Shown here piece by piece: positions 1,050-52,240 of a stretch of DNA of 60,000 bases. Below the pieces are notes generated by a model, which did not search any database, was not told the origin of the DNA, and was given only the letters and a program-made list of their open reading frames with translations. Position 1 is the first letter of the stretch, and every line of letters begins with the position of its first letter. Position numbers and translations under genes: made by a program. The DNA is from Mobula hypostoma. Lineage: Eukaryota. The DNA lies in assembly GCF_963921235.1 (NCBI RefSeq), contig NC_086097.1, positions 19,780,001-19,840,000 on the forward strand, read 5' to 3'.

Positions 1050-1380
1050 GGGACGAGTGGAACAGAGGGGTGACATCGGGAGGTGGGAGAGAGGAGTAAC
1101 GGAGATGGGGGGGGAGGAGAGAGCAAGGGGTAAGGGAGGTCACAACGGGAGTAAGAAAAATGAGAAAACAGGTTTTGCAGTGGGAAGGATCGAAGAGGAG
1201 GAGGGAACTGGGTGAAGGGGCAAAGGGGACAGGAGGGCGAAGGGGACGGGGGTGGAAGGGCGAAGAAGATAGGGGGCAAAGTGGACATTGTGGTGGGAGT
1301 CAAAGTGGGTGGGGAGGAGGGCAAATTGGACGGGGGAGCAAGGTGGAAGGAGAGGAAGGAGAGGGAGCAAAGGGGACGGT
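1050..1380. repeat. Low-complexity purine-rich (G/A) tract at the start of ACSS1-like intron 1
   Basis: Runs of GGA/GGG/GAAG over about 330 bp; the overlapping ORFs are Gly/Glu/Arg- or Pro/Ser/Leu-rich artefacts. Confidence 0.7.
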
Positions 1381-1910
1381 GCGAGACGAGATCCGCCACG
1401 TTCTGAAACACTCACCCGAGACATTGAGCTGCCCGCCCTCGAACCATCGGATCTTGCCGCGGGACAGGTCACAGTCGCTCACCGTGTGGAAGGGGCTGAT
1501 CCAGGACAGCCGGTCCCTGGCCAGCGCCCCCCAGAACCGTTCGGCCTGTTGCAAGGAGAATTGCCGCAGAGCCGGGTAGTCCCGGACCCCGGCGAAAGCC
1601 GTCGCCTCGGGCATAAACGCCGAAATGTCGCCGGTGCAGCAGCACCGGGCGAGCAGCGAGCCGAGACGGTCGGGCAGGAGGACCCGGAGCGAGGCGAGCG
1701 GCTTCCCCACCAGCCTCATGGTTCAGCCGTGTCGCTAGTGGTCCCGGGAACAGCAACGGATTCAGCGGAACTCGGGCAGCGACCGGACGCCGAACTGGGA
1801 ACCTGCCTCGGGGCGGGTGACGAAGTCCACATCTGGCTTGGGTTTCGCGTTCAAAATGTGATCGCGTCGCTCTCCAGCTCCTCCTATGATCCGCTATCCC
1901 ATCGTCCGCC
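1380..1910 (-). promoter_or_regulatory. CpG-island promoter / first-exon region of the ACSS1-like gene
   Basis: Strongly CpG-rich against a CpG-depleted background. GC box GGGGCGGG at 1810-1817 abuts a half-CRE TGACG at 1818-1822. No obvious TATA box. Confidence 0.65.
1416..1719 (-). CDS. acss1: Exon 1 of a mitochondrial acetyl-CoA synthetase (ACSS1 family, probably the ACSS1B paralogue)
   Basis: ATG at 1719-1717 in an ACCATG context. Arg/Leu/Ser-rich N-terminus typical of a mitochondrial presequence, followed by ACS N-terminal motifs FWGALARDRLSWISPF and IRWFEGGQLNVS. Ends at a G|GTGAGT donor (GT at 1415-1414, phase 1). Further exons are not seen in the window. Confidence 0.9.
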
Positions 1911-8589: not shown

Positions 8590-9149
8590 TACATGCACTG
8601 GCCACGTTATTAGGTACATCCTGTACCCAACAGAGGGGCCACTGAGTGTATGTTCATGGTCTTATGCTGTTGTAGCCCATCCACTTCACGGTTTGACGTG
8701 TTGTGTGTTCAGAGATGCTCTTCTGCACACCACTGTTGTAACACGTGTTTATTTGAGTTACTGTCACCTTCCTGTCAGCTTGAACCAGTCTGACCTTTCA
8801 CCTCTGACCGCTCTCATTAACAAGGCATTTTCACCCACAGAACTGCTCCTTTTCTTGTTTTTTTTTTGTTTTTCGCACCAACCTCTGTAAACTCTAGAAA
8901 CTATTATTTGTGAAAATCCAAGGAGATCAGCAGTTTCTGAGATAATAAAACCACCCCGTCTGGAACCAACAATCATTCCATGGTCAAAGTCACTAAGATC
9001 ACATTTCTTCCCCACTCTGATGTTTGGTCTGAACAACAACTGAACCTCTTGACCATGTCTGCATGCTTTTATGCATTGAGTTGCTGATTCAATATTTGCA
9101 TTAGTGAGAAGGTAGACAGGTTTACCTAATAAAGCAGCCACTGAGTGTA
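8590..9149 (-). mobile_element. Non-autonomous Tc1-like DNA transposon (N-terminal HTH remnant only)
   Basis: Terminal inverted repeats related to TACACTCAGTGGCCACTTTATTAGGTAC; internal GKKCDLSDFDHGMIVG...SETADLLGFS...VSRVYR Tc1 HTH. Confidence 0.8.
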
Positions 9150-9924
9150 TAATAGAGAAGCATTATTATTTTAGTCTGATCAACATCTCCACCCTTTAAC
9201 CCACCCCACCAACCCCCACTACCAGTACATACACGTCACCTGGCACCACATACAATCAATGTTATTGGTACAGTACATTGTGTTTTATAGGGTTGCTTTT
9301 ATCTTTACATTTATTGTGCTCTGTATGCTTATTGTGTTTTATTTACACTGCTTCATATCCGGAGCAATGATCGTTTCGTTCTCCTTTACACACAAGAATG
9401 AAAATGAACTATCTTAAATCCTGAATCTTGGGTATGAATATATTATTATCACATACAACATAGAACAGTATAGGCGATGTTGTGCTGACCTTTTAACCTA
9501 CTTCGAGATCGATCTAACCCTTCCATCCCACATAGAACCTCTATTTTCTTTCATCCGTTTGCCTACCTAAGAGTCTTTCAAACACTCCTAATATAACTGC
9601 CTCTACCACCACCCCTGGCAGTGTGTTCCATGCACCCACCATTCTCTGTGTAAAAACCTTCCTCTGATATCCCACTTATACTTTGCTCTAAGTACATTAA
9701 AATTATGTCCTCCAGAAGGATTCCAGTGTGGGAAAAAGGCGCTGGCTGTCCACTCTATCAATGCCTCATCCTCCTTTCATCATATATATTAGACATATAC
9801 TAGATATATTACATATCAAAGTTCAAAGTTTAAATAAGTTTATTATCAAAGTACATATATATCACCATATACAAACCTGAAATTCATTTCCTAGTGGGCA
9901 TACTCAATAAGTCCACAACATCGA

Positions 9925-13414: not shown

Positions 13415-16400
13415 AAACATAGAAACATAGAAACATAGAAAATAGGTGCAGGAGTAGGCCATTCGGCCCTTCGAGCCTGCACCGCCATTTATTATGATCA
13501 TGGCTGATCATCCAACTCAGAACCCCGCCCCAGCCTTCCCTCCATACCCCCTGACCCCTGTAGCCACAAGGGCCATATCTAACTCCCTCTTAAACATAGC
13601 CAATGAACTGGCCTCAACAGTTTGCTGTGGCAGAGAATTCCACAGATTCACCACTCTCTGTGTGAAGAAGTTTTTCCTAATCTCGGTCCTAAAAGGCTTC
13701 CCCTCTATCCTCAAACTGTGACCCCATCGGGAAAATCTTCCTGCATCTAGCCTGTCCAATCCCTTTAGGATCTTATACGTTTCAATCAGATCCCCCCTCA
13801 ATCTTCTAAATTCCAACGAGTACAAGCCCAGTTCATCCAGTCTTTCTTCATATGAAAGTCCTGCCATCCCAGGAATCAATCTGGTGAACCTTCTTTGTAC
13901 TCCCTCTATGGCAAAGATGTCTTTCCTCAGATTAGGGGACCAAAACTGCACACAATACTCCAGGTGTGGTCTCACCAAGGCCTTGTACAACTGCAGTAGT
14001 ACCTCTCTGCTCCTGTACTCGAATCCTCTCGCTATAAATGCCAGCATACCATTCACCTTTTTCACCGCCTGCTGTACCTGCATGCCCACTTTCAATGACT
14101 GGTGTATAATGACACCCAGGTCTCGTTGCACCTCCCCTTTTCCTAATCGGCCACCATTCAGATAATAATCTGTTTTCCTATTTTTGCCACCAAAGTGGAT
14201 AACTTCACATTTATCCACATTAAATTGCATCTGCCATGAGTTTGCCCACTCACCCAACCTATCCAAGTCACCCTGCATCCTCTTAGCATCCTCCTCACTG
14301 CTAACACTGCTGCCCAGCTTCGTGTCATCCGCAAACTTGGAGATGCTGCATTTAATTCCCTCATCCAAGTCATTAATATATATTGTAAACAACTGGGGTC
14401 CCAGCACTGAGCCTTGCGGCACCCCACTAGTCACCGCCTGCCATTCTGAAAAGGTCCCGTTTATTCCCACTCTTTGCTTCCTGTCTGCTAACCAATTCTC
14501 CACCCACACCAATACCTTACCCCCAATACCATGTGCTTTAAGTTTGCACACTAATCTCCTGTGTGGGACCTTGTCAAAAGCCTTTTGAAAATCCAAATAT
14601 ACCACATCCACTGGTCCTCCCCTATCCACTCTACTAGTTACATCCTCAAAAAATTCTATGAGTTTCGTCAGACATGATTTTCCTTTCACAAATCCATGCT
14701 GACTTTGTCCGATCATTTCTCCGCTTTCCAAATGTGTTGTTATCACATCCTTGATAACTGACTCCAGCAGTTTCCCCACCACCGACGTTAGGCTAACCGG
14801 TCTATAATTCCCCGGTTTCTCTCTCCCTCCTTTTTTAAAAATTGGGGTTATATTAGCCACCCTCCAATCCTCAGGAACTAGTCCAGAATCTAACGAGTTT
14901 TGAAAAATTATCACTAATGCATCCACTATTTCTTGGGCTACTTCCTTAAGCACTCTAGGATGCAGACCATCTGGCCCTGGGGATTTATCTGCCTTCAATC
15001 CCTTCAATGTACCTAACACCATTTCCCTACTAACATGTATTTCACTCAGTTCCTCCATCTCACTGGACCCTCTGTCCCTTACTATTTCTGGAAGATTATT
15101 TATGTCATCCTTAGTGAAGACAGAACCAAAGTAATTATTCAATTGGTCTGCCATGTCCTTGCTCCCCATAATCAATTCACCTGTTTCTGTCTGCAGGGGA
15201 CCTACATTTGTCTTTACCAGTCTTTTCCTTTTTACATATCTATAAAAGCTTTTACAGTCCGTTTTTATGTTCTCTGCCAGTTTTCTCTCATAATCTTTTT
15301 TCCCCTTCCTAATTAAGCCCTTTGTCCTCCTCTGCTGAACTCTGAATTTCTCCCAGTCCTCAGGTGAGCCACTTTCTCTGGCTAATTTGTATGCTACTTC
15401 TTTGGAATTGATACTATCCCTAATTTCTCTTGTCAGCCACGGGTGCACTACCTTCCTTGATTTATTCTTTTGCCAAACTGGGATGAACAATTGTTGTAGT
15501 TCATCCATGCAACCTATAAATGCTTGCCATTGCATATCCACCGTCAATCCTTTAAGTGTCATTTGCCAGTCTATCTTAGCTAATTCACGTCTCATACCTT
15601 CAAAGTTACCCCTCTTTAAGTTCAGAACCTTTGTTTCTGAATTAACTATGTCACTCTCCATATTAATGAAGAATTCCACCATATTATGGTCACTCTTACC
15701 CAAGGGGCCTCTCACGACAAGATCGCTAATTAACCCTTCCTCATTGCTCAAAACCCAGTCCAGAATAGCCTGCTCTCTAGTTGGTTCCTCAACATGTTGG
15801 TTCAAAAAACCATCCCGTATACATTCCAAGAAATCCTCTTCCTCAGCACCTTTACCAATTTAGTTCACCCAGTCTACATGTAGATTGAAGTCACCCATTA
15901 TAACTGCTGTTCCTTTATTGCACACATTTCTAATTTCCTGTTTAATACCATCTCCGACCTCACTACTACTGTTAGGTGGCCTGTACACAACTCCCACCAG
16001 CGTCTTCTGCCCCTTAGTGTTACGCAGCTCTACCCATATCGATTCCACATCTTCCTGGCTTATGTCCTTCCTTTCTATTGCGTTAATCTCTTCTTTAACC
16101 AGCAACGCCACCCCACCTCCCCTTCCTTCATGTCTATCCCTCCTGAATATTGAATATCCCTGAACGTTGAGCTCCCATCCCTGGTCACCCTGGAGCCATG
16201 TCTCTGTGATCCCAACTATATCATAATCATTAATAACAATCTGCACTTTCAATTCATCCACCTTATTACGAATGCTCCTTGCATTGATACATAAAGCCTT
16301 CAGGCACTCTTTTACAACTCTCTTAGCCCTTGTACAATTATGTTGAAAAGTGGCCCTTTTTAATGCTTGCCCTGGATTTGTCGGCCTGCCACTTTTACTT

Positions 16401-16663
16401 TTCTCCTTTGTACTTTTTGCTTCTACGCTCACTTTACACCCCTCTGTCTCTCTGCACTGGTTCCCATCCCTCTGTTGTGAACTAACCTCCTCACGCCTAG
16501 CCTCTTTAATTTGATTCCCACCCCCCAACCATTCTAGTTTAAAGTCACCTCAGTAGCCCCCGCTAATCTCCCTGCCAGGATATTGGTCCCCCTAGGATTC
16601 AAGTGTAACCCGTCCTTTTTGTACAGGTCACGCCTGCGCCAAAAGAGGTCCCAATGATCCAAA
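13415..16663 (-). mobile_element. Young CR1 LINE, 5'-truncated in ORF1, with near-complete ORF2
   Basis: (TTTCTATG)n tail; TATAG duplicated at 13410-13414 and 16664-16668; ORF1 C-terminus with the SGNH-type DGLHLN motif; ORF2 with APE and RT domains. Confidence 0.93.
13517..16528 (-). pseudogene. CR1 ORF2 (APE endonuclease + reverse transcriptase) interrupted by one in-frame stop
   Basis: ORFs 15860-16528 and 13517-15829 share a frame, separated by TAA at 15862-15860. Motifs GITETW, MGDFN, SDH, KSPGPDG, YLDFQKAFD, GVPQGSVLGP, FADD. Confidence 0.9.
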
Positions 16664-21423: not shown

Positions 21424-22094
21424 CACTCAATGGTCACTTTATGAGGTACATACCTACATCTGCTCGTTAATGCAAGTATCTAAGCAGCCAATCACATGAC
21501 TGCAACTCAATGCATAAAAGCATGCAGACATGATCAAGAGGTTCAGTTGTTGTTCAGACCAACTTTAGAATGGGAAGAAATGTGATCCAAGTGACTTTGA
21601 CTCTGGAATGATTGTTGGTGCCAGACAGGGTGGGTTAAGCATCTCAGAAACTGTTGACCTTCTCAGATTTACATCCACAGCTGTCTCTAGAATTTACAGA
21701 GAATGGTGTGAAAAATAAAAAAATATCCAGTGAATGAGAGTTCTTTGGGTGAAAATACCTTGTTAATGAAAGAGGTCAGAGGGGGAATGGCCAAATGAGA
21801 GAAAGTCTGCAGGTGCTGGAAATCCAAGCAACACACATAAAATGCTGGAGGAACTCAGCAGGCCAGGCAGCATCTATGGAAAAGAGTACAGTCGATGTTT
21901 CAGCCCGACTCTTTTCCATAGAGGAGAATGGCTAGACTTGTTCAAGCTGACAGGAAGGCAACAGTACCTCAAATAACCATGCATTCAAACAGTGGTATGC
22001 AGAAGAGCATCTCTGAACACACAACACATTGAATCTTGAAGTGGATGCGGAAGACCACAAATTAGAGGTACCTAATAGAGTGGCCACTCAGTGT
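21424..22094 (+). mobile_element. Non-autonomous Tc1-like element with a nested Penelope-terminus fragment (about 21794-21919)
   Basis: Same TIRs and HTH remnant as 8590-9149; the insert is flanked by a degenerate duplication, AGAGGGGGAATGGCCA / AGAGGAGAATGGCTA. Confidence 0.75.
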
Positions 22095-22940: not shown

Positions 22941-24020
22941 TTTGACTGTTTGTACCATGATCATCACATTCTGCAGGAGCACCATTCAAAGGTTCCTGAC
23001 CAGCTGCATCACCGGCTGGCATGTGTATTGCAATGTAGTAGATCCCAAAATCCTGCAACGTATGGTGAGCATCTCTGAAACATCATCCAGGTCTCTACCC
23101 CCCCCCCCCCTATTCAGGACATATATCAGAAGCCCTGATACTCAGTGCCTTCAGCTTTGTCAAAAACCCTTCCCATCCCTCCCACAATCCCTTTGACCTC
23201 CAGCATTCAGGCAGAAGACACCACAGCTTAAGAACTGGTCACCTTTCATCTTTTATTGCTACTGGTTCACATATTTATACTACAGCTTGTTTCATTATAA
23301 TAGTGCCAGTAACATTATACTGTCCTCCATAAACACGCACCTCACACTTTATGCCAACCTCTCAATCGTCAGGCCCTGTCACTCAGGGACTTGTGTTAAT
23401 ATGATTTTGTGACTGTATGCATTGGATTGTCACTATGTGCGCTGTGTGTGACTGTGTATCACGTTTGCCCCAGAGGAACTTTGTTTTGTTTTGCAGTATA
23501 AATTTGTACAGTTGAATGACAGTAAACTTGAACTCCAACTTGATTGGGGATTGGAATTAAAATGCTTGGCCACCAGGAAATCGAGCTTGTTGTAGGCAGA
23601 GCAGCGAGTACAGACCCAGAGCTATCAAGTGTTCCTCGTATGATAACCCTTTCATTCCCAGAATCATCCTTGTGAACCGCCTCTGGACCCTTTCCAATGC
23701 CAGCATATCTTTTCTTAGATGAGGAGCCCAAAACTGTTCACAATACTCAAGGTGAGGCCTCACCAGTGCCTTATAACGCCTCAGCATCACATCACTGCTC
23801 TCGTATTCAAGACCTCTTGAAATGAATGCTAACATTGCATTTGCCTTCCTCACCACCAACTCTACCTGCAAGTTAACCTTCAGGATGTTCTGCACAAGGA
23901 CTCCCAAGTCCCTTTGCATCTCATATTCCTGGATATTCTCCCTGTTTAGAAAATAGTCTGCACATTTATTTCTCCTACCAAAGTGCAAGTACATGCCATT
24001 TCCAACATCGTATTTCATTT

Positions 24021-25354
24021 AACACACGTAAAAATTGCTGGTGAACGCAGCAGGCCAGGCAGCATCTCTAGGAAGCGTTACAGTCAACGTTTTGGGCTGA
24101 GACCCTTCGTCAGGACTAACTGAAAGAAGAGCTAGTAAGAGATTTGAAAGTGGGAGGGGGAGGGGGAGATACAAAATCATAGGAGAAGACAGGAGGGGGA
24201 GGGATGGAGCCAAGAGTTGGACAGGTGATTGGCAAAAGGGATACGAGAGGATCATGGGACAGGAGGCCCAGGGAGAAAGAAAGGGGAAGGGGGGAAGCCC
24301 AGAGGATGGGCAAAGGGTATAGTGAGAGGGACAGAGGGAGAAAAACGAGAGAGAGAAAAAAAGAATGTGTGTATATAAATAAATAACGGATGGGGTACGA
24401 GGGGGAGGTGGGGCAATAACGGAAGTTAGAGAAGTCAATGCTCATGCCATCAGGTTGGAGACTACCCAGAGGGAATATAAGGTGTTGCTCCTCCAACCTG
24501 AGTGTGGCTTCATCTATACAGTAGAGGAGGCCGTGGACAGACATATCAGAATGGGAATGGGATGTGGAATTAAAATGTGTGGCCACTGGGAGATCCTGCT
24601 TTCTCTGGCAGACAGAGCGTAGGTATTCAGCGAAACGGTCTCCCAGCCTGCGTCGGGTCTCGCCAATATATAGAAGGCCGCATCGGGAGCACTGGACGCA
24701 GTACATCACCCCAGCCGACTCACAGGTGAAGTGTCGCCTCACCTGGAAGGACTAATCCACATCCCATTCCCATTCTGATATGTCTATCCATGACCTCCTC
24801 TACTGTCAAGATGAAGCCACACTCAGGTTGGAGGAACAACATCTTATATTCTGTCTGGGTAGCCTCCAACCTGGTGGCATGAACATTGACTTCTCTAACT
24901 TCAATTAATGTCCCACCTCCCCTTCATACCCCATCCGTTATTTATTTATTTGTTTGTTTGTTTATTTATTTATATACATATTTCCCGCTCTCTTTTTCTC
25001 CCTCTGTCCCTCTCACTATACTCCTCGCCCATCCTCTGGGCTTCCCCCCTCCCCCTTTCTTTCTCCCTAGGCCTCCTGTCCCATGATCCTCTCATATCCC
25101 TTTTTCCAATCAACTTTCCAGCTCTTAGCTTCATCCCTCCCCCTCCTGTCTTCTCTTATCATTTTGGATCTCCCCCTCCCCCTCCCACTTTCAAATCTCT
25201 TACTATCTCTTCTTTCAGTTAGTCCTGACGAAGGGTCTCGGCCCGAAACGTCGACTGTACCTCTTCCTATAGATGCTGCTTGGCCTCCTGCGTTCACCGG
25301 CAATTTTTATGTGTGTTGCTTGAAATTCCAGCATCTGCAGATTTCCTCCTGTTT
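24021..25354. mobile_element. Inverted (head-to-head) Penelope-like insertion with an 11-bp TSD
   Basis: GIY-YIG motif GVMYCVQCSRCGLLYIGETRRRLGDRF on the minus strand (ORF 24116-24742); second arm on the plus strand from about 24756; GTATTTCATTT at 24010-24020 and 25355-25365. Confidence 0.88.
25220..25257 (+). ncRNA. Minimal type-I hammerhead ribozyme (best-preserved copy)
   Basis: UAGUC-CUGACGA-A-GGGU CUCG GCCC-GAAAC-GUC|GACUG. Stem I AGUC/GACU, catalytic CUGANGA and GAAA boxes, stem II GGGU/GCCC, palindromic ACGU helix III, GUC cleavage triplet ending at 25252. Confidence 0.8.
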
Positions 25355-28351
25355 GTATTTCATTTGCCACTTTCTTGCCCATTCTCCTAATTTGTCTAAG
25401 TCCTTCTGCATCCTACCTGTTCCCTCAACACTACCTGCCCCTCCATGAATCTTCTTATCATCTGCAAACTTGGCAACAAAACCTTCTATTCCATCATCTA
25501 AATCACTGATACACAGCATAAAAAGCAGTGGTCCCAACCCCGATCCCTGTGGAACACCACTGGTCACTGGCAGCCAACCAGAAAAGGATAATTTTATTCC
25601 CACCCCCTGCCTTGTACCAATCAGCCAATGCTCTAACCATGTTAGTAACTTTACTGTACTAGTATGGGCTCTTAATTTGATAAGCACCCTCATGTGTGGC
25701 ACCTTGTCAAAGGCCTTCTGAAAGTCCAAATATACAATATCCACTGCATTCCCTTCATCTATCCTACTTGTAATCTCCTCAAAGAATTCCAACAGGTTTG
25801 TCAGGTAAGATGTTCCCTTAAGGAAACCCTGCTGACTTTGTCCTGTGTCACCAAGTACCCCATAACCTCATCCTTAACAATTGACTCCAACATCTTCCCA
25901 ACCACTGAGGTCAGGCTAACTGGTCAATAATTTCCTTTCTGCTGCCTTCCTCCTTTCTTAAAGAGTAGAGTGACATTTGCAATTTTCCACTCCTCTGGCA
26001 CCATGCCAGAGTCCAATGATTTTTGAAAGATCATCGCTACTGCCTCCACACCACCTCTTTCAGAACCCTAGGCTGCAGTTCATCTGGTCCAGGTGATGTA
26101 TGTACCTTAGGTCTTTATGCTTTTGCGCACCTTCTCCCTTGTAATAGTAACTGCACCTATTTCTCTTCCTTCATACGCTACAACATCTGGCACACTGCCA
26201 GTGTTTTCTACAGTGAAGACTGATGTAAAGTACTCATTTAGTTCATCTGCCATTCCTTGTCCTCCATTATTATTTCTCCTGCCTCATTTTCTAGCGGTCC
26301 TCTATCCACTTTCGTCTCGCTTTTACTTCTTACATACTTGAGAAACCTTTTACTATCCACTTTGATATTGTATGCTGGCTTGCTTTCATATTTTGTATTT
26401 TCCCTTCTACTGATTCATTTAGTTGCTCTCTGTAGTTTTAAAAGCTCCCCAAACCTCGATCTTCCCACTAATTTTTGCTTTGTTGTATGCCCTGTCTTTT
26501 GTTTTTACGTTAGCTTTGACTTCCCTTGTCAGTCATGGTTGTACTATTTTGCCATTTGAGTATTTCTTTATTTTTGAAAAAATCTACCCTGTACTTTCCT
26601 CATTTTTCCCAGAAACACATGCCATTGCTGTTCTGCTGTCGTCCTTGCCAGCATCTCCTTCCAACTTACTTTGGCCAACTCCTCTCTCGTACCACTGTAA
26701 TTTCCCTTACTCCACTGAAATACTGCTACGTCAGACTTTACTCTCTCCCTATCAAATTTCAAGTTGTACTCAATTTTGTTGTGATCACTGGCTCCTAATG
26801 GCTCTTTGACCTGACACTCCCTCATTGCCCCTGGTTCACTACATAACACCCAATCCAGTCTAGTAGGCTCAATGACAAACTGCTTTAAAAAGCTCTCTCT
26901 TGAGCATTCAACAAACTCACTCTCTTGAGAGTCATTACCAACCTAATTTTCCCAATCGACTTGCATGTTAAAATCTCCCATGACTACCATAACATTGCCC
27001 TTTTGACATGCCTTTTCTATTTCCTGTTGTAATCTGTAGGCGATATCCCAGCCACTGTTGGGAGACCTGTATATGACAGCCTTCGACATCCTTTTACCCT
27101 TGCATTTTCTTAACTCAACCCACAAGGAATCAACATCTTCCAATGCTAAGTCACAACTTTTCACTGATTTGATATCATTCTTTACCAGTAGAGCTACACC
27201 ACCCCGTCCTTCAACCTTCCTATCCCTCGGACACAACATGTAACTTTGGACATTCAGCTCCCAACTACAACCATCCTTCAGCCACGATTCAGTGATGGCC
27301 ACGTCATACCCAAAAATCTGTAGAAGTGCAACAAGATCATCCACTTTATTTCTTATACTCAGTGCATTGAGATATAACACTTTGGGTACTGTATTTGCGA
27401 CCATTTTTGATTCTGCATCCCTAATGCACTGATACTCATCCAGCTGACTGCAATTTTGTTCTGTCATCTGTCTGCCCTTCCTAACAGTCTGACTGCACAC
27501 TATCTTTGCTTTTTTACTATCCGTCCTATCCTGATTTCCTTCATTCTGGTTCCCTCCCCGCTGCCAAATTAGTTTAAACCCTTCCCAACAGCTTTAACAA
27601 ACCTGCCCGCGAGGATATTGGTCCCCCTCAGGTTCAGGTGCAACCTGTCCCTTTTATACAAGTCATACCTCCCCCAGAAGAGATCCCAAAGATCCAAGAA
27701 CCTAAAGCCTTAATCCCTGCACAGGCTTCTTGGCCACACATTTATCTGCCAAATCATCCTGTTTCTACCCTCACTGGCACGTGGCACAGGTAGTAATCCA
27801 GAAATCTCTATCCTGGAGGTCCTGCTTCTCAGCTTTCTACTTAGTTCTCTAATTTCTCTCTTCAGGACCTCTTTGCTTTTCCTTCCTCTGTCATTGGTAC
27901 CAATATATATGAAGACATCTGGCTGCTCTCCCTCCCTCTATAAAGTGCTGTGGACACGATCCGAGATGACCCTGACCCTGGCACCTGGGAGGCGACATAC
28001 CATTCAGGTGTCCCATTCACATCCACAGAATCTCCTGTCTGTTCCCCTGACTATTGAGTCCTCTATCACTACTGCTCCCCTCTTCTCCCTCTTTCCCTTC
28101 TGCACCATGGACCCAAGCTCAGTGCCAGTAACCTGGTCTCTGTGGCATTCTCCTGGGAAGTCATCCCCCACATATAAAACTGTATACTTATTTTTTGAGG
28201 GGAATGACCACAGGTGTGCTCCCCACTAACTGCCTATTCACATTTCCATTTCTCCTGACAGTCACCCAGCTGCTCGCCTCCTGGAATTTAGGGGTGACTA
28301 CTTCCCTGTAACTCTGATTGATTATCTCCTCAGTCTCCCGTTAATCTGGGT

Positions 28352-34130: not shown

Positions 34131-35619
34131 CTACCTAGTCCCGCTGACTTGTACCTGGACCATAACCCTCCATACCCCTCCCATCCAGGTACTTATCCAA
34201 ACTTCTTTCAAATGCTAAAATTAAAATGGCCACGGGGCAATGAGAGAAGAAAGAATGGGCATGATTTGGAGGTTGCATGCTGCTGGGGAAGGAACTCTGA
34301 TGCCTCGATAATGTCACTGGCTACTAAGTTCCCCACTTGGACAAGGTCTGAAGGTCATTGGATCCCCAGGCACAGGTCTACCTCATTCATTCAGTTTCAG
34401 CCCAACCCACGTTCACTTAGATCCACTTCGAGCACCAAGAAATTCATGCCACCTGTTCGGAGAAGCTGCTAGATGGGAACGTATTCACATCTCCAGAATC
34501 TCATTATCTCTGCTACACGAGACAAGTTCCAGCATGTATGAGAGTGTTCCGTTCAAACTTCCTGCATCAGTGGTGGGTTTGAACCACACAGGCAAAAGCA
34601 AGTTGCCTGTCATTCACATTATTACATTTGTCCAATAGACAGACAGAGTTGGATCACTTACCTCTGCCGAGGGTGTCGAAGTGAAAAAAAAATTGTATAA
34701 AACATGCCTACATCTATTCTCAAAGTATCCCCACCAAAGCAATTCTGACTGAAATGCCCTCTAACTTCCAAGAATGTGTTTCCCTCTGCGTTATAACCAG
34801 CCAGAACGGAGATGAGTGGGTAATTGAACCGACAATCAAATTTGGTGACAGTGCTGCTTTAAGTGAACAAGTGACACATACAGAATGCTGGAAGAACTGA
34901 GCAAGTCAGGCAGCATCTATGGAGCAAAGTGAACAGTCAACATTTCAGGCTGAAACCCTTCACCAGGGTTGGAAAGGGGAGGAAGCCAGAATAAGAGGGT
35001 GGGGAGTGGAAGGAGACTGGGATTGATTAAGTAAATGAGACCAGTTTTAACCTTACAATTTAAACACAGGCAACCTCCATAGATTACCATAGTCTGTATT
35101 ATAATATATTATGCTGGGGAAGTTTCCCTGCTTTTGCTGGCAGAAGCTGCTGCGGTTTCTATTCCTCTGCTCATTAAATAGATACTGCTTTCTGTATAAA
35201 TTGTCATTGTTGCACGATAAACAGTTTGATCAAGTTATACTCCCACCTGCAGATATCATAGGCTGGCATGGGGCTGTCAATAACTATTCTCTTTATAAAA
35301 TGACAGGTACAGGTTTTACCTGGTTGTAGGATAGCTTGATCGTTAGGCAAAAACAAAATACTCAGATTATATTCCATTGTTTAAATTTAATTTCCCTGGT
35401 CCCTAGTGCAATTAGATGGAGTCTTGACCTCACACTCTACCTCGTTTTCATCTTGTAGGTTATTGTCCAACTGCACTGCAATTTCACTGCATCTGTTACG
35501 CTTTATTCTCTATTGTTTATTCTGTCTCAGTGCTCTATGCAATAGACCATAAAACAAAGGATTAGAATTAGGTGCCTACAATCTATATTTGATTTGATCT
35601 GGATGAATAGTATTGCGAG

Positions 35620-35820
35620 TAACACGCACAAAATAACAGGTCAGGCAGCATCTATGGAGAGGAATAAAGAGTCGACATTTCAGGCTGAGACCCTTCATCA
35701 GGACTCAGGGTCGCAACCTGAAACATCGACTCTTTATTCCTCTCCACAGATGCTGCCTGACCTGCGGAGTTCTTCCAGCATTTTGTGTGTGTTCTTCTGC
35801 ATTTCCAGCATCTGCAGAAT
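35620..35820. repeat. Fold-back element made of two inverted Penelope termini
   Basis: 58-bp arms at 35637-35694 and 35707-35764 with about 5 mismatches and a 12-nt loop. Confidence 0.8.
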
Positions 35821-36184
35821 GTATTGTGTTTACGATTAACAGTACAGGAATTTCACTGTATCTTGGTACCTGTAGAAATAAACACCAATACTGTACCAAA
35901 CACCTATTGAAACAGTATTTGTTGGAAATAAACAAATGTGTCAGGCACTATGTGTGGAGAAAGAAGAATTGATAATGTTTTAGGACTCAGACCTTTCAAC
36001 AGGGCAGAAGAAAGTTAAAGGCATGATGCAGAGAAGGAAGGACACGGCTGCAAAATGTCACAGACCTTAAACATTAACTCTCTGTCTCCACAGATACTGA
36101 TTGACATGCTGAACATTTGTATCACTCTGATTCTATACATCTTACTTTCACTACGACTTGGAGTTCTCATTGGATTTTTCTAAA

Positions 36185-37687: not shown

Positions 37688-39159
37688 TAACAATGTGCTG
37701 GAGGAACTCAGCACGTTGAGCAGCATCTGTGGGAGGACATGAACTGTCACTTGAGTCCTGACGCAGCGTTTTGACCCGAAATGTCGACAATTCCTTTCCT
37801 CCGAGGCATGCCACTCGACCCTCTCAGTCTCTCTAGCAGATTGTTGCTCTAGATTCTGACAGCCGCAGTCTCTTGTGTCTCTTTCAGTTGAACTTACTTG
37901 TACTACGTGGCACATTGTTTCAAGTGAAAACTCAAATCAGTCCAGTGAGGGTAAGTGCGATTCCTGGGATCCTGGGTGTACAGGGAAAGCAACTATAAAT
38001 CTCCTCAACCAATCAAATGAAAGGGCTAGGAACTCAACAGAGAATGAGTGAGAAGGATGTGTAAGTGGAATGGGTGAATTCCTGATCAAATCAGGTACAG
38101 TTAGGAAAATAAAGGGAGTAAAAGTAACTGGATTGAGAAAGAAAAATAGAAAATCTCTAACAACAGCTAAAATCTTACAGAGTCATAGAGCACCACCGCA
38201 CAGAAACAGGGCCTTTAGCCCATCTAGTTCATGCCAAACTGATATCCTGACTAGTTCCTGGACCATAGCCTCTCTCATCCATGTACTAATCTAAAACTCT
38301 TTTACAAGTTGAAACTAAACCTGCATCCCTTAAATATCTCACCTTTCACCCTTAACCTCTGACCTCTAGTTCTAGTCCCATTGGCAAAAAGCCTACTTGC
38401 AATTACCCAATCTATACCCCTCAAAACCTTGTATACCTCTATCAAATCTTCCTTCATTCTCCTCTGCTCCTGGGAATAAAGTGCTGACCTTTTCAACCTT
38501 TCCCTAGAGCTCAAGTCCTCAAGTCGAGGCAACATTCTATTAAGTCCTACACAAGCATGAGTTAAGAGACATGGTGGCACAACGAATCTTACAGAACGTG
38601 ACTCCACACTTATAATGGTTGATGTTCACTTCAACAGGTGTTGACTTCAGTAATTAACACTAAGTACTTAATTTAAGAAGGGGCTTTGCCCAGAATGGGG
38701 AAAACTTACCTTTCCACAGTGGATATATCAGGCAGTTACAGGAATGTTGGTATTTCATATACCGTATTGCTGTGGTATGTGAGACAATGAGATGGGGGTT
38801 CATGTACCTACATAGGCGTGGAAAGGTGCAATTTCTGAATGTGTGAGTTTAACAAAACGGTTCCTGCAAAACACTGAGGTTAAAGGCAAACAATGAAAAT
38901 GTATGTGCTGGAAACCCGAACCGAAGTTAGAAAATACTGGGGATACACAGCAGGTCAGGCAGCATCTGAGGAGAGAGAAAAACAGCATTGACATTTTGGG
39001 TCAACGACCTTTCATTAGGATTGATTCATTGACCTGAAATATTAACTCTGTTTCTCTGCCGAAATGTCAACTCTGTTTCACAACAGATGGTGCCTGACCT
39101 GCAAAGTATCCACAGCAATTTCTGTTTCACTTGAGTTTCAGGAAAATCGGGTGTCAGTA

Positions 39160-40154: not shown

Positions 40155-40459
40155 TAGAGTTTTACAGAGATTGGTGAGAAAAACAAAAATCATCCAGTGA
40201 GCGGCAGTTGTATCAGCAAATTTGGCTTGTTAATGAGAGGGTCAGAGGAGAATGCCCAGGCTGGTTCAAGCTGACAGGAAGGCAGCAGTGACTCAAATAA
40301 CCATGCATTACAACAGTGGTGTGCAGAAGAGCATCTCTGAATAGACCACACATCAAACCTTGAAGTGGATGGGCTACAACAGCATAAGACCATGAACATA
40401 CAGTCAGTGGCCACTCTATTGTGTACAAGATGTACCTAATAAAATGGCCACTGAGTGTA
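40155..40459 (+). mobile_element. Partial Tc1-like non-autonomous element
   Basis: 3' half of the 8590-9149 family, with the doubled terminal repeat. Confidence 0.75.
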
Positions 40460-42251
40460 TTTCACAGTTCCTTATTGTCACTGGGTCTAATTCACAGAGC
40501 TCCTACCTCAACACCTTCACCAGGAGGACTGCAATGGTTAAGAAGGCAACTCATTACCACCAACAAAGATAACTAGGGATGGGTAACAAATGCTGGCCTT
40601 GCCGGTGAAGCTGAGATCCCAGAAGTGGTTTAAATAAAATTCCTTAAGTAGCCCATTAAAAATTGGGCCAGGTGTGATTTCATTGGCCTCAAAGATCCAG
40701 AATTCTAAGAAGGTGGGAAGGAAGACTTCCACTTGGGTAGGAGCAGATTCCATTGGATTTTCATCCCATGACACCAGGAATGTAAAACAACAGCACAGGG
40801 AGGAGTATGACTGGTGAGTGTTAGGGTGTACTCTGGTGTTATGGAATATAGCAAATATTAATTTCAACAGCAACTAGTCTTCAGATCTGAATATGGAACG
40901 TAGGATGAATTTAAAATGCAGCTCGAAAAAAAATGGTCTTCCTGAAGCTGCATTTTAGAGTAAACACCCAATTGACTGAGATGTCTGCATATGCATGAAT
41001 GCAATCAACACTGCATTGACCTAAGATTATACATGGACATGAATATGGAGTCAATAATAATTAACACTCATTTTGGGTGTTGGTGAGACGATCCAGATAT
41101 TTGAAAAATTACATGTAACTCAAAAGAAGCATCATGAAGGCATTGTAACTATAAAAATTGTCCTGTTACCTTTGTTCTTTAACATATTAAAACTGTGCTG
41201 AAATGTTGGGTCGGGGAGCCCCTCTCTCTCGCCCTCAAGTAACTCCAAAGTCTGTCAGCTTGTGTGTGTCCCGAATAAAGACTTTTATATCTACCAGCTG
41301 TGTCTCTCTGGTGGCTTTGTTCACAGTCACGAGAGTGAGAATATCCATTTGGTTCTCCCTTCTCCTTCCCCACCCAAAAGGGGCATGTCCCAGTAATTTC
41401 CAAAAGAAATATTCCCCTTGCCTACATCTCAAGGCAATTCTCCAATCAGTTTATAGTATGGGAACTGAATCTGATTACCAAGGGGATTCCAGACTGAGCA
41501 AGCAACAGCAATGGCGGGGTGGGGGGGGGGTTGTTGGATTAAAAAGCTTCTACAACCTTGGCATCACAGTTCCTAGGCAACCAACCAACTCTAGCCTGGG
41601 CATTTCACTAACCAACTCCAATTCATGAACCAACACATGGATGAAAGAAAAATGGTGGGCTATAGGAAAGGGAAGGGTTGGTTAAAAGGTCAGCATGACA
41701 TCATGGGCCAAAAGGCCTGTACTGTACTGTACAGATATATGTTCTATGCTCTATGTTCAAGTCTGATCAAAACAATTCATTAATCTCAACTCCTAAACCA
41801 TCTGATCTGATCAACTCATTAACCACAATTCACGAAACGAACTTGACCTGGATTAACCACATCTCAGCAGCAAGCCCAACCTGGGTATCTCATTTGCGAC
41901 TCAAGAACACGCAGAACAGTTTACTTTCGAGCGCCACCCATTACCCCTTCCACGCGCCACCTTCCCGTTTAATCGCAAAGTGATGCCTCCAAGGTTCCTG
42001 CGAGGGAAGATCTGGCTTCAGGCCAGTATTCGTAGTTACCCATTCCAACAATTCCCAGAGGTGCTGGCGGAGTAATAGCTGGTCACCAGACTAAGGTTAA
42101 GGGTTACACACACTTCAGTCCAAGTGGCAAAGGGGGAAAACTGGACCTTTGGCAAATATTCTCTCCACCTACATTAAGTGACTATTTCAGCCATCTCTAA
42201 TTGTGCGTCTTCTGCTTTTGTACCATGTTATAATGCTCATAGTTACAGAAA

Positions 42252-44183: not shown

Positions 44184-44497
44184 TTAGAACTGTTCAGTTG
44201 ACATCTCGTCCTGCGTTGCTTTTGACTGCTCGCTCTTCATCTCTTCAGGCCTCTCCTCATGGGCCATCTTGCCTTGTCCGTCACCGGACACCGTCCCCAA
44301 CACTTTAGCACTGTGCTCCTGCGCTTTCGCCCTAAGGGCAGCTATGCTGCTCTCCCTCAGTTCCTCCTTAGAAATGGCCCCCTTGGAATCCTTGCCCTTG
44401 TCTTCACGCTGCTCGTCCTCCTGGCTGGGCTGACTGCTGTGTTCGGCCTCCACCTTCCTCACCACTTCAGATGCCTCGAGGGACTTTTTGTGCATTC
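44184..44497 (-). CDS. vsx2: VSX2 exon 5, last coding exon (end of CVC, OAR domain, stop)
   Basis: (G)MHKKSLEA...[30 protein letters not shown]...; the OAR motif distinguishes VSX2 from VSX1. TAG acceptor (AG at 44499-44498), phase matches exon 4, TAA at 44186-44184. Confidence 0.95.
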
Positions 44498-44560
44498 CTA
44501 GAAAGAATTGTTGGTACTCGGTTTTAGAAAATCGCCTGGTCATTGGTAAGCCATCTTGAA
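44498..44560 (-). CDS. vsx2: 63-nt alternative 5' extension of VSX2 exon 5 (upstream acceptor)
   Basis: TTTTCAG acceptor (AG at 44562-44561) lies exactly 63 nt upstream and in frame, encoding [21 protein letters not shown]. This resembles the long VSX2 isoform insert I recall from bony vertebrates. Confidence 0.8.
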
Positions 44561-44764
44561 CTGAAAACGGTAAGCAAAGAAAGATGCCAAAGATTAAACT
44601 GCAGCAGGAATGTGGGAGCTAGGCTTCATTTAACATCGAGACGACAGGTCAAAGGTCAGCTCATTAACACAAATCTTTAGTTTGACAATAAAGCCATCCG
44701 TAAACAGGGTCACCCCCAAACCTGGGAACAGAGGACACACAGATTCTGCTTTGAGGCGTTGGCT

Positions 44765-45200
44765 TAGGGCAGCACGATATCACAGTGAGTGGGGCCTGGG
44801 TTCAGTCCTGTCTGTGGGCTCTGACTGTGTGGAGTTTTCACAATGCTCTCCCTGTGACCCTCTGGGTTTCCTCCACTTGCTCCAATTCCCACCTACCTTG
44901 CAAAGACGCTCTGGCTCATAGGCTAATTGGCCGTTGACCATTTGTTTTATTTAGAGATACACTGCCAATGAGCTGCACTGCCCTGCAACCCACCTATTTA
45001 ACACTAATCAAAGGACAATTTTACAGAAACCAATTAACCTACGTACAGGTACATTTTTGGACTGCGGGAGGAAAACCACGCGGTCATGGGGAGAACAAAC
45101 AAACTCCTTACAGACTGTGCCAGAACTGAACTCCGAACTCCAATGCCCCAAGCTGTAACAACGTCACACTAACCACTGCACATTAACTGCCCCTGGTATG
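44765..45200. mobile_element. Two V-SINE-like copies in opposite orientation in VSX2 intron 4
   Basis: Plus-strand copy at about 44765-44935; minus-strand copy at about 44945-45180 (GGGAGGAAAACCACGCGGTCATGGGGAGAAC). Confidence 0.6.
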
Positions 45201-45225
45201 TTGGTGTATGGTAAAATAGAAGGGA

Positions 45226-45300
45226 CTACTACTACTACTACTACTACGTCGACTCAGACCTAGGGGCCGGCATCGGGCACGATGACAGACTCTCCACTTC
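45226..45300 (-). repeat. (ACT)n microsatellite, probably the tail of a short retroposon 3' end
   Basis: About 7 ACT units at 45226-45247, followed by a CpG-rich 50-bp segment. Confidence 0.5.
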
Positions 45301-46596
45301 TTGAAGGGAAATTGAAGGGAATGTGAATGAAAAGGCTACGAGTAAGTTAGAGGGGCAAAGGGATGGTTTTACTATATAAAATATAGTACACAGTGAATAC
45401 ACCATTTCAGGGAACTGTTCCAATATGGCCTCAAATCACCAGCTGTATTAACCTCTTTTCTTTAATGGGCTTTATTCTGAACACTGAGTGCCCACGACAT
45501 TCAGTATATTTTAAATGCAGGTTTCAGGGAGAAGGCAGGAGAAATGGTTTTGAGAGGGAATAATAAATTGAATGGCAGAGCAGACTTGCTAGGTAAATGG
45601 CCTAATTTGGCTCCCATGTCCTACAGTCTTACAGTCTTATCCACAGAGCACAGGAGCTGATTTCCGTCGGTAAACTGGCAAACTCCTTCCAGAAAGGTCA
45701 AGTGCAAATGATGGTTTGTGTTAGGGATATAAAAGGGCAAAAATTTTGAACAACACACACACACACACAAATGCTGGCCGAATTCAACAAGTCAGGCAGC
45801 ATGTATAGAGGGGAATAAACAGTAGACATTTCAGGCTGATACCCTTCATTGGGAATCATTGTACTTACCACCTAAAACTCAATCTACCCTGACTGTGAAC
45901 AGAATTATATGTAAAAACTGCTGCTACATCTCAATGGTAATAGGTTAAAAATATTTACTCTACCAAAGAATGAGGGACAGAAAATAGTTTTTAAAATTTG
46001 CAGACGCACACCTAATGTTTTTCTTGTGAATGCTTTCTATCCAACACCCTGTACCCGTGATGTAGATGCAAGCAAGTTTTTCGTTGCACCCGCGCATACA
46101 TGTATCTTTGCATATGACAACTAACACAACTTTGATAACAGTAAAAATCTGTCCCTAAAAAAATCTTTAGTGTATTGCAGGTTGTTGAAAGAAAGAATTG
46201 TTAATGGAAAGAACTGTCCATGCACAGTTCCATCACGGCCTCTTTTATTCATGTTCTTACCATCTTTCTTGTGCATTTGACAATAAACTCAACTTTGACT
46301 TTGTCCTTCACATGCCGATGTGGACAATTTTTTTTCACCCATCCTTTGAACAGTTCACACCCAAACAAATAGTTATGGGTCTTAGGTTATATAAAAGTCA
46401 AGCTAGCTAGTGACCGAAGATTCTTTCTCTGAAAGACTTTTTGTGAACCAAGCTATTGTTTACACCACAGCTCAACTGTTTCATGTCACCTTTATTTTAT
46501 TTCAGTTTTTTATAACATTTCATCTTTAATTAAATTTAAGTTCTCTATCTGCTGGTGTGGAATTTGAACTTTAGTATTCTGACAATTAACCTAGAC

Positions 46597-47560
46597 AACA
46601 CAAAAATGCTGGAGGTACTCAGCAGGTCAGGCAGCATCTATGGAGAGGAATAAACAGTTGACATTTCAGGCTGAGAACCTTCATCAGGACTGGAAAGGAA
46701 GGGCGGGGGGTGGCGGAAGCCAGCATAAGAAGGCGGGGAGAGGGGAAGGTGTACAAGCTAGAAGGTGATAAGTGAAGCCAGGTGAGGGGGAAGTTAGATG
46801 GGTAGGGCCGGGGGAGGTGATAAATGGAAAAGGTAAAGGGCTGAAGAAGTAAGAGAAAGCAGGATCTCCCAGTGGACACACATTTTAATTCCACATCCCA
46901 TTCCCATTCTGATATGTCTATCCACGGCCTCCTCTACTGTCAAGATGAAGCCACACTCAGGTTGGAGAAACAACACCTTATATTCTGTCTGCGTAGCCTC
47001 CAACCTGATGGCATGAACATTGACCTCAAACTTCCATTAATGCCCCACCACCCCCTTGTACCCCATCCATTATTTTTTATATATATATTCTTTCTCTCTC
47101 TCTCCTTTTCCTCCCTCTGTCCCTCTCACTATACCTCTTGCCCATCCTCTGGGCTTCACCCCTCCCCCTTTTCCTTCTCCCTGGGCCTCCTGTCCCATGA
47201 TCCTCTCATATCTCTATTGCCAATCACCTGTCCAGCTCTTGGCTCCATCCCTCCCCCTTCTGTCTACTCCTATCATTTTGGATCTCCCCCTCCCCCTCCC
47301 ACTTTCAAATCTCTTACTAGCTCTTCCTTCAGTTAGTCCTGACGAAGGGTCTCGGCCCGAAACGTCAACTGTACCTCTTCCTAGAGATGCTGCCTGGCCT
47401 GCTGCGTTCACCAGCAACTTTGATGTGTGTTGCTTGTAACTGAGAGTACGGGTTTGGACCATGGGAGAAAGAGAAGGAGGAGAGACACCAGAATGAGATG
47501 ACAGGCAGGTGAGGAGAAGAAAAGGGGAGAAAAGAGAAGGGGGTGGGGAGAAATTAGTGG
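46597..47560. mobile_element. Younger plus-strand Penelope fragment (about 46852-47435) within an older minus-strand Penelope
   Basis: THFNSTSHSHSDMSIHGLLYCQDEATLRLEKQHLIF; highly similar to 24756-25320; flanked on both sides by purine-rich minus-strand Penelope UTR. Confidence 0.8.
47334..47371 (+). ncRNA. Hammerhead ribozyme motif, core intact, one stem-I mismatch
   Basis: TAGTCCTGACGAAGGGTCTCGGCCCGAAACGTCAACTG; differs from 25220-25257 by one G>A change. Confidence 0.7.
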
Positions 47561-48399
47561 TTCTAATGGCTCCAATTCACCTGAACACCTGAGTTCCCAA
47601 TCCAGACGTTAACCACTGTGCTACAAGTGAAGGAAACAAAAATACCAATGTGCAGCCATTAGGGAAAGCACCCTTCACTAACTCCTAGAGTGAGCTGGAC
47701 TTTAACATGAATTCTCTTGTAATAACTTTAGGTAGCACCCTGTGCTCCAACCTGTAAATGATATTAAATGTCCATGCTGGAAGTTAGAAGCTCTTATGAT
47801 TCAAATCTCTAATAACTCCAACTTGGATAAAGTCAAGTGGGTTTCTGCAGGAGAGGTCATGGGTGATTATTGGGTATGAGTACAGATCCACCCCGGATAT
47901 TCTCTTTCCTCTCTCCTATCAGCCAGAAGGTACAAAAGCCTGAAAGCAGGTACCCCCAGACTCCCACTGTTATCAGAGTCTTGAACAGACCTCTTGCAAA
48001 ATAAAATGGACTCCTGGCCTCAAAATCTATCTCATTATGAGCTTGCATTTTATCATTTACCTGCACTATACTTTTTTGAAGGGAGCATTTACACTTTATC
48101 CTGCATTGTTATTGTTTTACCATATTCCACTTCAGTGTACTGATCTGCATGAAAGGTGTGTGAGACAAGCTTTCCATTGTGCCTTAGTGCATGTGACAAT
48201 AATAAACCAATCCCAATAATAATGGAATATGGGCTGTTTTGGATTGTGTGCAACTCTGAAAGATTTACATTTGGTAATGAGAAACAATGGTTAAAAAAAC
48301 AGTGCACGGCAACCTATAGAATGGTGAAGCTGTTTGCAGGGAAGTGTTCTTGCTGCGGAACATCAGAGTTAGCTCTGCATTTCTTTTCCACCCAAATCC

Positions 48400-48930
48400 G
48401 ACCATAAAATGTAGGAGGAGAATTAGGCCATTCGGCCCATTAAACCTGCTCCACCATTCCAGCATGGATGATTTATTATCTCACTCAACCCCATTCTCCT
48501 GCCTTCTCCTCATAATCTTTGATGCCCTTAATAATCAAGAACCTATCAACCAGCACTTTAAATATACCCAATGGCTTGGCCTCCACAGTGTCTGTGGCAA
48601 TGAATTCCGCAGTCACCGTCCTCTGGCCACAGAAATTCCTCCTCATCTCTGTTCTAATGGGACGTCCTTCTAATCTGAGGCTGTGACATCTGGTCCTCCC
48701 CACTATAGGATACATCCTCTCCATGTCCACTCTATCTAGGCTTTTCAATATTTGATAGGTTTCAATGAGACTCCCCTCTTGTTCTTCTAAACTCCAGTGA
48801 GTATAGGCACAGAGTCATCAAATGCTCCTCATACATTAACCCTTTCATTCCTTGGATCATTCTTGTGAACCTCCTATGGATCCTCTTCAACGTCAACACA
48901 TCTTTTCTTGGAGAAGGTGTCTAAAACTGC
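48400..48930 (-). mobile_element. CR1 3' fragment
   Basis: RT C-terminal remnant and CR1 3' UTR. Confidence 0.75.
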
Positions 48931-49147
48931 CAGGTCAGTCTCAGCATAATAAAACTCCCACAACTTTGCTCCCTTCACCCAACAACGTACTGTAAATGAG
49001 CAGAAAACCCTAACGCTAACCCTAACCCAACCGAAGTCAGAACCACTTCAGTTTTTGAAGCACCTCTTGACCAGTAGGGGAAGACTTATATCAGTTAGCA
49101 CTGAAGCACAGCTGTTCCAATGAAGCAGGCTCTGTCCTCCTGGAATC

Positions 49148-49870
49148 AAGGCCCCAAATGGTCCTTCTAGGTGAGACAACACTTCACCTGGGAATCTGTT
49201 AGGGTCGTCTACTGTATCTGCTATTCCTGATGCGGTCTCCTCTGTGCTGGTGAGACCTGACATATATTGGATTGCTTTGTTGAACACCTCTGTTCATCCG
49301 CAAAAAGCAGAATTTCAATTACTATCCCAATTCCCGTTCAGACATGTCGGTCCATGGCCTCCTATTGTGCCACAATGAGGTCACTCTCACTGTGAGGAGC
49401 GACAGCTTATATTCCATCTAGGTAGCCTCCGACCTTATGGTATAAACATCAATTTCCTCTTCCGGTAATTTTTCCTCCTCCCTCTTCCCTCTTTTTCTAT
49501 TCCTCATTTTGGCCTCTTACCTCTTCTCCTCACCTGCCTATCACCTCCCACCTGTGCACCTCCTCCTTCCCTTTCTCCCATGATCCACTCTCCTCTCCTA
49601 TCAGATTCCTTCTTTCCAGCCCCATGCCTTTTCCACCTATCACGTCCCAACTTCTTATTTCATACCCCTCACCTGCACATCTGCCTTCACCTATCATCTT
49701 CTAGCTTATACTCCTTCCCATCACCCCCACCTTCTTATTTTGGCATCTTGACCCTTCCTTTCCAGTCCTGATGAAGGGTCTCTGCCCGAAACATTGACTG
49801 TTTATTCATTTCCATAGATGCTGCCTGACCTGCTGAGATCCTCCAGCATTTTGTGTGTGTGTTGCTCTGG
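49148..49870 (+). mobile_element. Degenerate Penelope-like element (GIY-YIG remnant, UTR, decayed hammerhead at 49763-49800)
   Basis: Homologous to the reverse complement of 24021-24750. Confidence 0.75.
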
Positions 49871-50254
49871 GTTTACACTGGCTCAATGACATTTTGATTT
49901 GGATCACACTTTTGCTGGGACATGCAATATGCCATCCTTACCCAGTCTGGCTCCAGCCACAAAGATTAATTTTACCTGATATCTACAAAATACATCAAAC
50001 TTTGTCTTGGAATCTGTCTGTGTTTCTGGCAGTCTTGATTGAGAAAATAAGCACAATTGTTTCCTCCATTACCAAATGACAGGGAGGGAAGAGCCAAAGG
50101 AGACACAGTGAGTTGTCTTAGTACAGAATTAACTGCCAGAAAGATTGATGCAAATAATAACATTCAAATGGAAATTGAGTAGATATTTGAAACCATCTAT
50201 GATGAAGAGTAAGGAAGAGTGACTAAATGGATAACAAGCAATCTACTGAAGAAA

Positions 50255-50720
50255 CTCACACACAAAATGCTGGAGGATCTCAGCAGATCAGGCAGCATCT
50301 ATGGAGGGAAATGAACTGTTGACATTTCAGGCTGAGACCCTTCATCAGGACTGGAAAGGAAGAGGGCAGAGGCCAGAATAAAAGGATGAGAGGAGGAGGA
50401 GGGCACAAGCTGGCAGGTGATAGGTGAGGGAGAAGGTGGGAGGAGGGTTGGGGAGAGGGGGCAAAAACAGAATGAGGTGACAAGCTGGGTGGTTTTGGAG
50501 GAAGATACAGTATCTGTTATGTCTCTGCATCTACTGGAGAATCTCAGCAGATCGAGCACCATCCATGGGGGGGAAAGGAACTGTCAAAGTTTCAGGTCCG
50601 ATGTAGGGTTTTGACCTGCAACTTTGCCCTTCACAGAAGCTACTCAACCCATTGAGTACCTGCACCAGAACGTCTGTCACTCCAGATTCCAGCATCCGCA
50701 GTCTCTTGTGTCCCTATCTG
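50255..50720. mobile_element. Penelope terminus (minus) plus an older fold-back element
   Basis: ACACACAAAATGCTGGAGG...CTTCATCAGGACTGG terminus, then degenerate inverted arms at about 50535-50715. Confidence 0.65.

Positions 50721-50919: not shown

Positions 50920-52240
<1,321 letters not shown>

Follow-up and report, generated by a model that had tools for sequence, protein, structure and literature searches.

The locus examined here raises the question of whether a 38-nt hammerhead motif lying among repeats of a probable ray genome is a genuine ribozyme sequence, from which element and by what route it came to lie there, and whether it still cuts RNA in the animal. We addressed these questions within a window of 60 kb (the whole stretch of DNA analysed, to which all coordinates refer).

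The hammerhead motif and its copies

We found that the motif at 25220-25257 on the + strand is a real minimal hammerhead sequence of a well-described kind (Table 1). It contains the full catalytic core and the NUH triplet, and none of its bases deviates from the family majority. Helix III is the palindrome ACGU, and the G10.1-C11.1 pair is present (G25233-C25244). The catalytic nucleotides, stems I and II and the ACGU helix claimed by the initial annotation can all be read at this position, and the cut it placed at 25252/25253 agrees with ours; its anatomy holds as given, except that it left out A25232, which stands unpaired between A9 and G10.1. Such an unpaired base between positions 9 and 10.1 is a hallmark of Penelope minimal hammerheads (Cervera 2014, PMC4209133). 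A hammerhead descriptor run on both strands of the window returned two matches, 25220-25257 (+) and 35674-35701 (-), compared with a mean of 0.01 matches with a helix III of any length in 200 dinucleotide shuffles, none of which (0/200) contained a loopless helix III. Similarly, a 28-nt core pattern with at most three mismatches matched seven times in the window and never in 100 shuffles. The check with Rfam that had been proposed does not detect the motif: no hammerhead family of Rfam 15 was found in the whole window (E up to 1) or at 25200-25290 (E up to 10). The motif does not stand out in its folding z-scores (about -1.3). A stem-free form of the pattern also matched 11 metagenome loci and one viral locus, none of which showed helices or family flanks by eye, and we set these aside as chance matches.

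Table 1. Positions of the motif, of the insertion that carries it and of neighbouring features in the window
Feature	Position	Strand	Remarks
Minimal type-I hammerhead motif	25220-25257	+	Every core position and both helices intact; predicted cut 25252/25253
Helix I	25221-25224 with 25253-25256; U-G pair 25220/25257 in addition	+	Read from the sequence
Core C3-A9 and unpaired extra A before helix II	25225-25232	+	Core 25225-25231; extra A 25232
Helix II	25233-25236 with 25241-25244	+	Three G-C pairs, one U-G pair, 4-nt loop
G12-A15.1; helix III; C17	25245-25248; 25248-25251; 25252	+	Helix III loopless and palindromic
Right arm	24756-25354	+	Endonuclease-coding end, pyrimidine-rich untranslated stretch, hammerhead, 102 nt past the cut site
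Left, inverted arm, tail-less	24021-24753	-	87% identical to the right arm over 572 columns
37-nt tail, right arm only	25318-25354	+	From the three-way alignment and loose ends
Target-site duplication, left copy, 11 bp	24010-24020	strandless	
Target-site duplication, right copy, 11 bp	25355-25365	strandless	Exact duplicate of the left copy
Twin hammerhead, left arm	24081-24118	-	G12 changed to A; likely dead
LINE reverse-transcriptase remnant split by the insertion	25366-25867, continuing at 23557-24020	-	Pfam RVT_1 E 5e-17
Endonuclease piece, left arm	24419-24751	-	111 residues (last 111 codons); 101/111 identical to P0001
Closest same-strand sister with intact core	47334-47371	+	22 kb off; helix I pair beside the cut broken, G to A
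Acetyl-CoA synthetase, first exon	about 1300-1722	-	Nearest host gene
Paired-like homeobox gene, exons with OAR motif	44184-51948	-	Nearest host gene

The initial annotation had also claimed that the motif exists in many copies, and this is confirmed by the window and by sequencing contigs. An iterated profile gave 26 matches in the window, 24 of them terminus copies at E<1e-3. The whole motif is covered by 15 of the 24, two of which have an unchanged core (25221 and 47335), and the focal copy is the only one with the core and both helices intact; the damage in the window copies is mostly CpG decay. In one DNA run with closely matching sequence, 213,422 contig pieces fell on a 991-bp stretch, a summed depth that does not measure copy number. 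Among 30 bins, the one holding the motif was the deepest, with a T at 25244 in about half of the contig depth. In run X1, sequences of other subfamilies enter the stretch at 25221 (818 contigs) and depart from it at 25258 (637 contigs), which indicates that the ribozyme is a block kept between subfamilies. Two runs that we guessed to be RNA are likewise rich in family sequence (16,012 and 10,563 contigs). The contig depth and the subfamily joints thus support a very abundant family with the ribozyme as a conserved block. In single contigs of runs X1 and X15, the match returns from 25259 to 25221, which doubles the ribozyme unit, and from 25354 to 24837, which gives a partial tandem; tandem forms may therefore exist elsewhere in the genome.

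Covariation of stems I and II, whose absence the initial annotation had named as evidence against a ribozyme, amounts to a weak signal among the 15 full window copies. Helix positions are paired in 81% of cells compared with 16-52% when the helices are slid, and two-sided changes occur in three of eight helix pairs, in one sequence each, most changes being CpG decay. Shuffles matched the three two-sided pairs in 19 of 500 cases and the covariation score in 70 of 500.

The inverted insertion and its parent element

The motif sits in the right arm of a single head-to-head inverted insertion of 1,334 bp (24021-25354), which the initial annotation had overlooked together with the mutated twin motif on the left arm. 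Both 3' ends of the insertion point outward, the left arm stops 37 nt before the right one, and the twin motifs lie 1.1 kb apart on opposite strands. Loose contig ends occur at 24753, the boundary of the left arm, and, in 43 contigs of run X17, behind 25355. When the insert is removed, the empty site restores one open LINE reverse-transcriptase frame. The exact 11-bp duplication and the restored frame together show that the pair is one insertion. We take the split LINE to be of the CR1 type, judging from its motifs. Another LINE reverse-transcriptase frame in the window is open over 780 codons at 13517-15859 on the - strand (Pfam RVT_1 E 3e-34) and is preceded by an endonuclease-like frame at 15860-16549.

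Further head-to-head pairs of termini occur at 35606-35820, 37690-37871, 38900-39150, 50529-50704 and 35939-36115. These five are short (only 180-250 bp), with junctions in or near the ribozyme, and in the first four one arm seems long-tailed and the other short-tailed; the target duplications of the other window pairs are only 6-7 bp and possibly due to chance. The pair at 46590-47441 joins two different subfamilies; a target duplication was looked for here and none was found, and it is probably one copy inserted beside another.

The parent element can be approached through the coding remnant of the left arm, which is 91% identical to the Mobula protein P0001 and whose named matches are all batoid (Mobula, Hypanus and Rhinoraja), which makes a ray the likely host. 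Pfam GIY-YIG matches this piece weakly (E 0.036, below the cut-off, and missed at E 0.01), and a search of solved structures with it gave only matches at E>1. Of its CCHH finger, both cysteines and the second histidine are present; the first histidine is a tyrosine in this copy and a histidine in P0001. The relatives carry reverse-transcriptase sequence, recognized by eye, and a GIY-YIG domain with Pfam scores just under the cut-off. A complete C-x4-C-x2-C linker is found in three of the four ray relatives inspected (P0001, P0002 and P0007), and P0004 reads C-x4-C-x2-C without the preceding YP. The linker is cut off at the locus itself and is present in the 87-91% identical relatives P0001 and P0002. 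A CX2-5CxxC linker marks both Neptune and Nematis elements (Craig et al. 2021, PMC8557442). Together, these observations suggest that the truncated parent was likely a Penelope-like retroelement of the Neptune clade, the clade resting on the relatives, since reverse transcriptase and linker are missing from the locus. The motif lies in the terminal repeat of this element, downstream of the endonuclease end and 102 nt from the element end. The earlier identification of a minimal type-I hammerhead in a Penelope-like terminus is therefore borne out by the neighbouring endonuclease, the terminus copies and the published class.

Compared with published systems, the motif shares with the minimal hammerheads of PMC4209133 its type I form, a helix I of 4-5 bp, the unpaired base between 9 and 10.1, the G10.1-C11.1 pair and a loopless palindromic 15.2-16.2, as well as an occurrence mostly as single truncated copies with pairs on opposite strands. 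Helix II has 4 bp here and 7-8 bp in the minimal hammerheads of Schistosoma, and the 1.1 kb between the twin motifs exceeds the 100-700 bp reported there (PMC4209133); we found no entry for shark, Callorhinchus or Leucoraja in the supplement text of that paper. The locus resembles the endonuclease-bearing (EN+) elements of the Neptune clade in its C-terminal GIY-YIG with two cysteines between the motifs, the CX2-5CxxC linker (found here in close relatives), 5' truncation, an inverted adjacent copy, a 30-40 bp tail at one end and a hammerhead near the 3' end, but only the last 111 codons are left here, and the target is a LINE coding stretch rather than a microsatellite (PMC8557442). Inverted 5'-truncated copies with a one-sided tail of 30-40 bp and duplications of 8-10 bp have been described (PMC8557442; PMC3846280). 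In the Poseidon element PAc of Anolis carolinensis (PMC11167929), the hammerhead likewise precedes two sites at which reverse transcription starts and which set the tail; its copies also derive from uncut RNA, and its target is AT-rich. PAc belongs to another clade, however, and its start lies in an AC-rich stem-loop. The arm ends at our locus are rich in GU, and RNAalifold gave no consensus structure downstream of the motif. Non-LTR retrozymes also carry type I hammerheads from Penelope terminal repeats, and the only chondrichthyan sampled is reported to contain them (Li et al. 2026, bioRxiv 10.64898/2026.07.22.740005), but they form head-to-tail tandem arrays. Here the two arms stand head-to-head, with a single motif on each strand; no tandem array is present, the arms being inverted, and we rejected a retrozyme identity on these grounds.

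Age, competence and origin of the copy

The focal arm shows 18 non-CpG differences in 465 positions (about 3.5%) and has lost 4 of 13 CpGs; two sister copies show 17 and 14 non-CpG differences and have lost 5 and 7 CpGs. As the decay of the focal arm is like that of its sisters, we rejected a young insertion. Within this decayed arm the motif has no change in its 38 nt and retains all five of its CpGs, compared with four of eight lost outside the motif, a contrast short of significance (Fisher p 0.10). At the three-copy rates, a given copy would keep all 38 bases under neutral decay with a chance of 1-3%, which speaks against such survival, but this copy was picked because it is intact. We consider it likely that the motif sequence was kept by chance.

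The initial annotation had suggested that this copy may still be competent. In nearest-neighbour energies, which omit the tertiary core and Mg2+ and hence understate active folds, the active frame of the monomer reaches -8.9 kcal/mol compared with -12.9 kcal/mol for an inactive rod in which core and cut site are base-paired to each other, and an active double hammerhead reaches -16.7 compared with -34.1 kcal/mol for an inactive duplex; pairing of two 4-bp palindromes contributes no more than -1.7 kcal/mol. In a predicted read-through RNA, 37 of the 38 motif bases pair with the left arm, so that this antisense arm would sequester the motif. A hairpin arm downstream of the motif carries copy-specific changes, and a protein-binding hairpin in this region is unsupported, as RNAalifold found no consensus structure across 17 downstream segments. 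Published minimal hammerheads showed no monomer cleavage and only low cleavage as dimers or trimers (Cervera 2014, PMC4209133), and the ribozyme of the Anolis element cut only when the protein of the element was present, with no RNA-seq reads ending at the cut site (Frangieh et al. 2024, PMC11167929). The claim that such motifs cleave efficiently as dimers was thus overstated. Competence is plausible for the bare sequence, but it is doubtful for the locus, given the old arm, the disfavoured fold and the antisense arm. On balance, an engineered dimer or a version with a closed helix III would probably cut slowly in vitro; the copy at this locus is likely silent and probably cleaves no RNA in the living animal.

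The nearest host genes are both encoded on the - strand, so that the motif is antisense to both, and the locus appears intergenic. We assume that the acetyl-CoA synthetase exon belongs to acss1 and the homeobox/OAR exons to vsx1, the gene order recalling the vertebrate acss1-vsx1 neighbourhood. A short hairpin at 40392-40465 with weak microRNA-family scores below the Rfam cut-off is part of a dispersed repeat with further copies at 8590-9162, 21572-22047 and 52634-53122. The stretch 8764-9162 reads, as we take it, like the start of a Tc1-type transposase, and the repeat likely consists of DNA-transposon remnants.

We are confident that the locus is best explained as a minimal hammerhead ending a truncated Penelope-like element, likely of the Neptune clade, that inserted head-to-head into an older LINE, was kept by chance and is likely silent. 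For its origin we propose a two-primer route. From published work on other elements, the ribozyme of an active parent would have lain in the terminal repeat, helix III would have formed only between two copies or with help of the element's protein, and the cut would then have fallen after C17. The protein would have nicked both target strands 11 nt apart, each staggered end would have primed reverse transcription from its own start site, which lay 65 nt past the cut for one end and 102 nt past it for the other, and both copies would have run through the uncut ribozyme, stopped in the endonuclease-coding part and joined, yielding two arms that face outward, of which just one bears the 37-nt tail. 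We infer this route by analogy with PAc, whose protein nicks and extends both strands and whose two internal start sites define the tail (Frangieh 2024, PMC11167929). In 22 of the 24 window copies the first base lies upstream of the cut site by more than 3 nt, which is consistent with uncut or re-joined templates.

The identity of the element might be right and the inverted structure nonetheless have arisen otherwise, through antisense self-priming or two side-by-side insertions. Arkhipova 2013 (PMC3846280) makes the case for self-priming that begins at palindromes where copies meet head-to-head. The two arms are also no closer to each other than to a third copy, since 541 aligned columns hold 35, 29 and 20 differences unique to one of the three, and this three-way alignment shows no gene conversion between the arms. 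However, a single 11-bp duplication encloses both arms, which favours one event, and no long palindrome was found at the arm junction, and we regard these other routes as possible but unlikely. Under another alternative the copy still works as a ribozyme in the animal: + strand RNA that starts inside the right arm would be cleaved at 25252/25253, assisted in trans by RNA of another copy or by protein from an active element. This reading gains from the intactness of this copy alone among the 24, from the abundance of the family in the two runs guessed as RNA, such that partners may exist, from the promoters that terminal repeats of Penelope-like elements typically hold according to a review, and from the Anolis precedent of cutting in the presence of the protein. 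Against it stand the - strand orientation of both neighbouring genes and the distance of 22 kb to the closest same-sense intact core, the weak palindrome duplex, the low published dimer rates, the lack of Anolis reads ending at the cut and the copy-specific changes in the downstream hairpin arm. Among the sequences mapped here, whose contigs show neither RNA ends nor strand, there were no start or end pile-ups, and the raw DNA run X21 gave no matching reads. We judge cutting in vivo at this locus to be improbable. A takeover by the host, for example for the end or processing of a non-coding RNA between the neighbouring genes, with selection preserving the copy, would fit an unchanged motif in an otherwise decayed arm, but the CpG contrast falls short of significance, intactness was the reason for choosing this copy, and no listed contig piece bridges the insertion junctions for an orthology comparison; we find this reading very hard to credit.

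What the terminus copies may record

The profile starts of the 24 terminus copies fall at positions 1-2 in 15 cases, at positions 5-32 in nine and later in none. Of the 15 that reach position 1-2, ten run on into pyrimidine-rich untranslated sequence and five do not, three of the latter abutting an inverted partner. Altogether, 14 of the 24 copies seem to begin inside the roughly 32-nt ribozyme, five of them at the outer edge of helix I and two near the cut, in a small sample whose edges are good to a few bases, which misses very short copies and in which the upstream sequence of some subfamilies is uncertain.

Immediately ahead of helix I, a pyrimidine run that closes with AG (25203-25222) resembles a 3' splice site, and such a run is also present in a second subfamily (49764, 46691 and 50352). 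In the Penelope element of Drosophila virilis, an intron ends at helix I (PMC4209133). Splicing to helix I is unsupported for the ray family, as none of the 15 joints inspected out of 379 looked like it.

Both the motif class and the inverted architecture have already been published (Cervera 2014; Arkhipova 2013; Craig 2021), and in the open-access literature searched we found no paper devoted to Penelope hammerheads of rays or sharks. The role of the ribozyme in transposition is still called unclear (PMC8557442), and cleavage was dispensable in vitro (PMC11167929). One 60-kb window here holds 15 full-length motif remnants, and about 9,000 hammerhead motifs are reported for the whole genome of Xenopus. 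We tentatively speculate, at low confidence, that ray genomes are the densest known store of hammerheads and that their fossil copies record where reverse transcriptase leaves the RNA. Their 5' ends, mapped genome-wide, would bear on whether Penelope ribozymes cut their template in vivo or act as a folded stop or switch. With this locus, the class described in 2014 gains a ray family, and the insertion itself is a textbook case of an inverted Penelope copy; the finding would become more important if a solo minimal hammerhead cuts in vivo or if the ray copies reveal the ends of templates.
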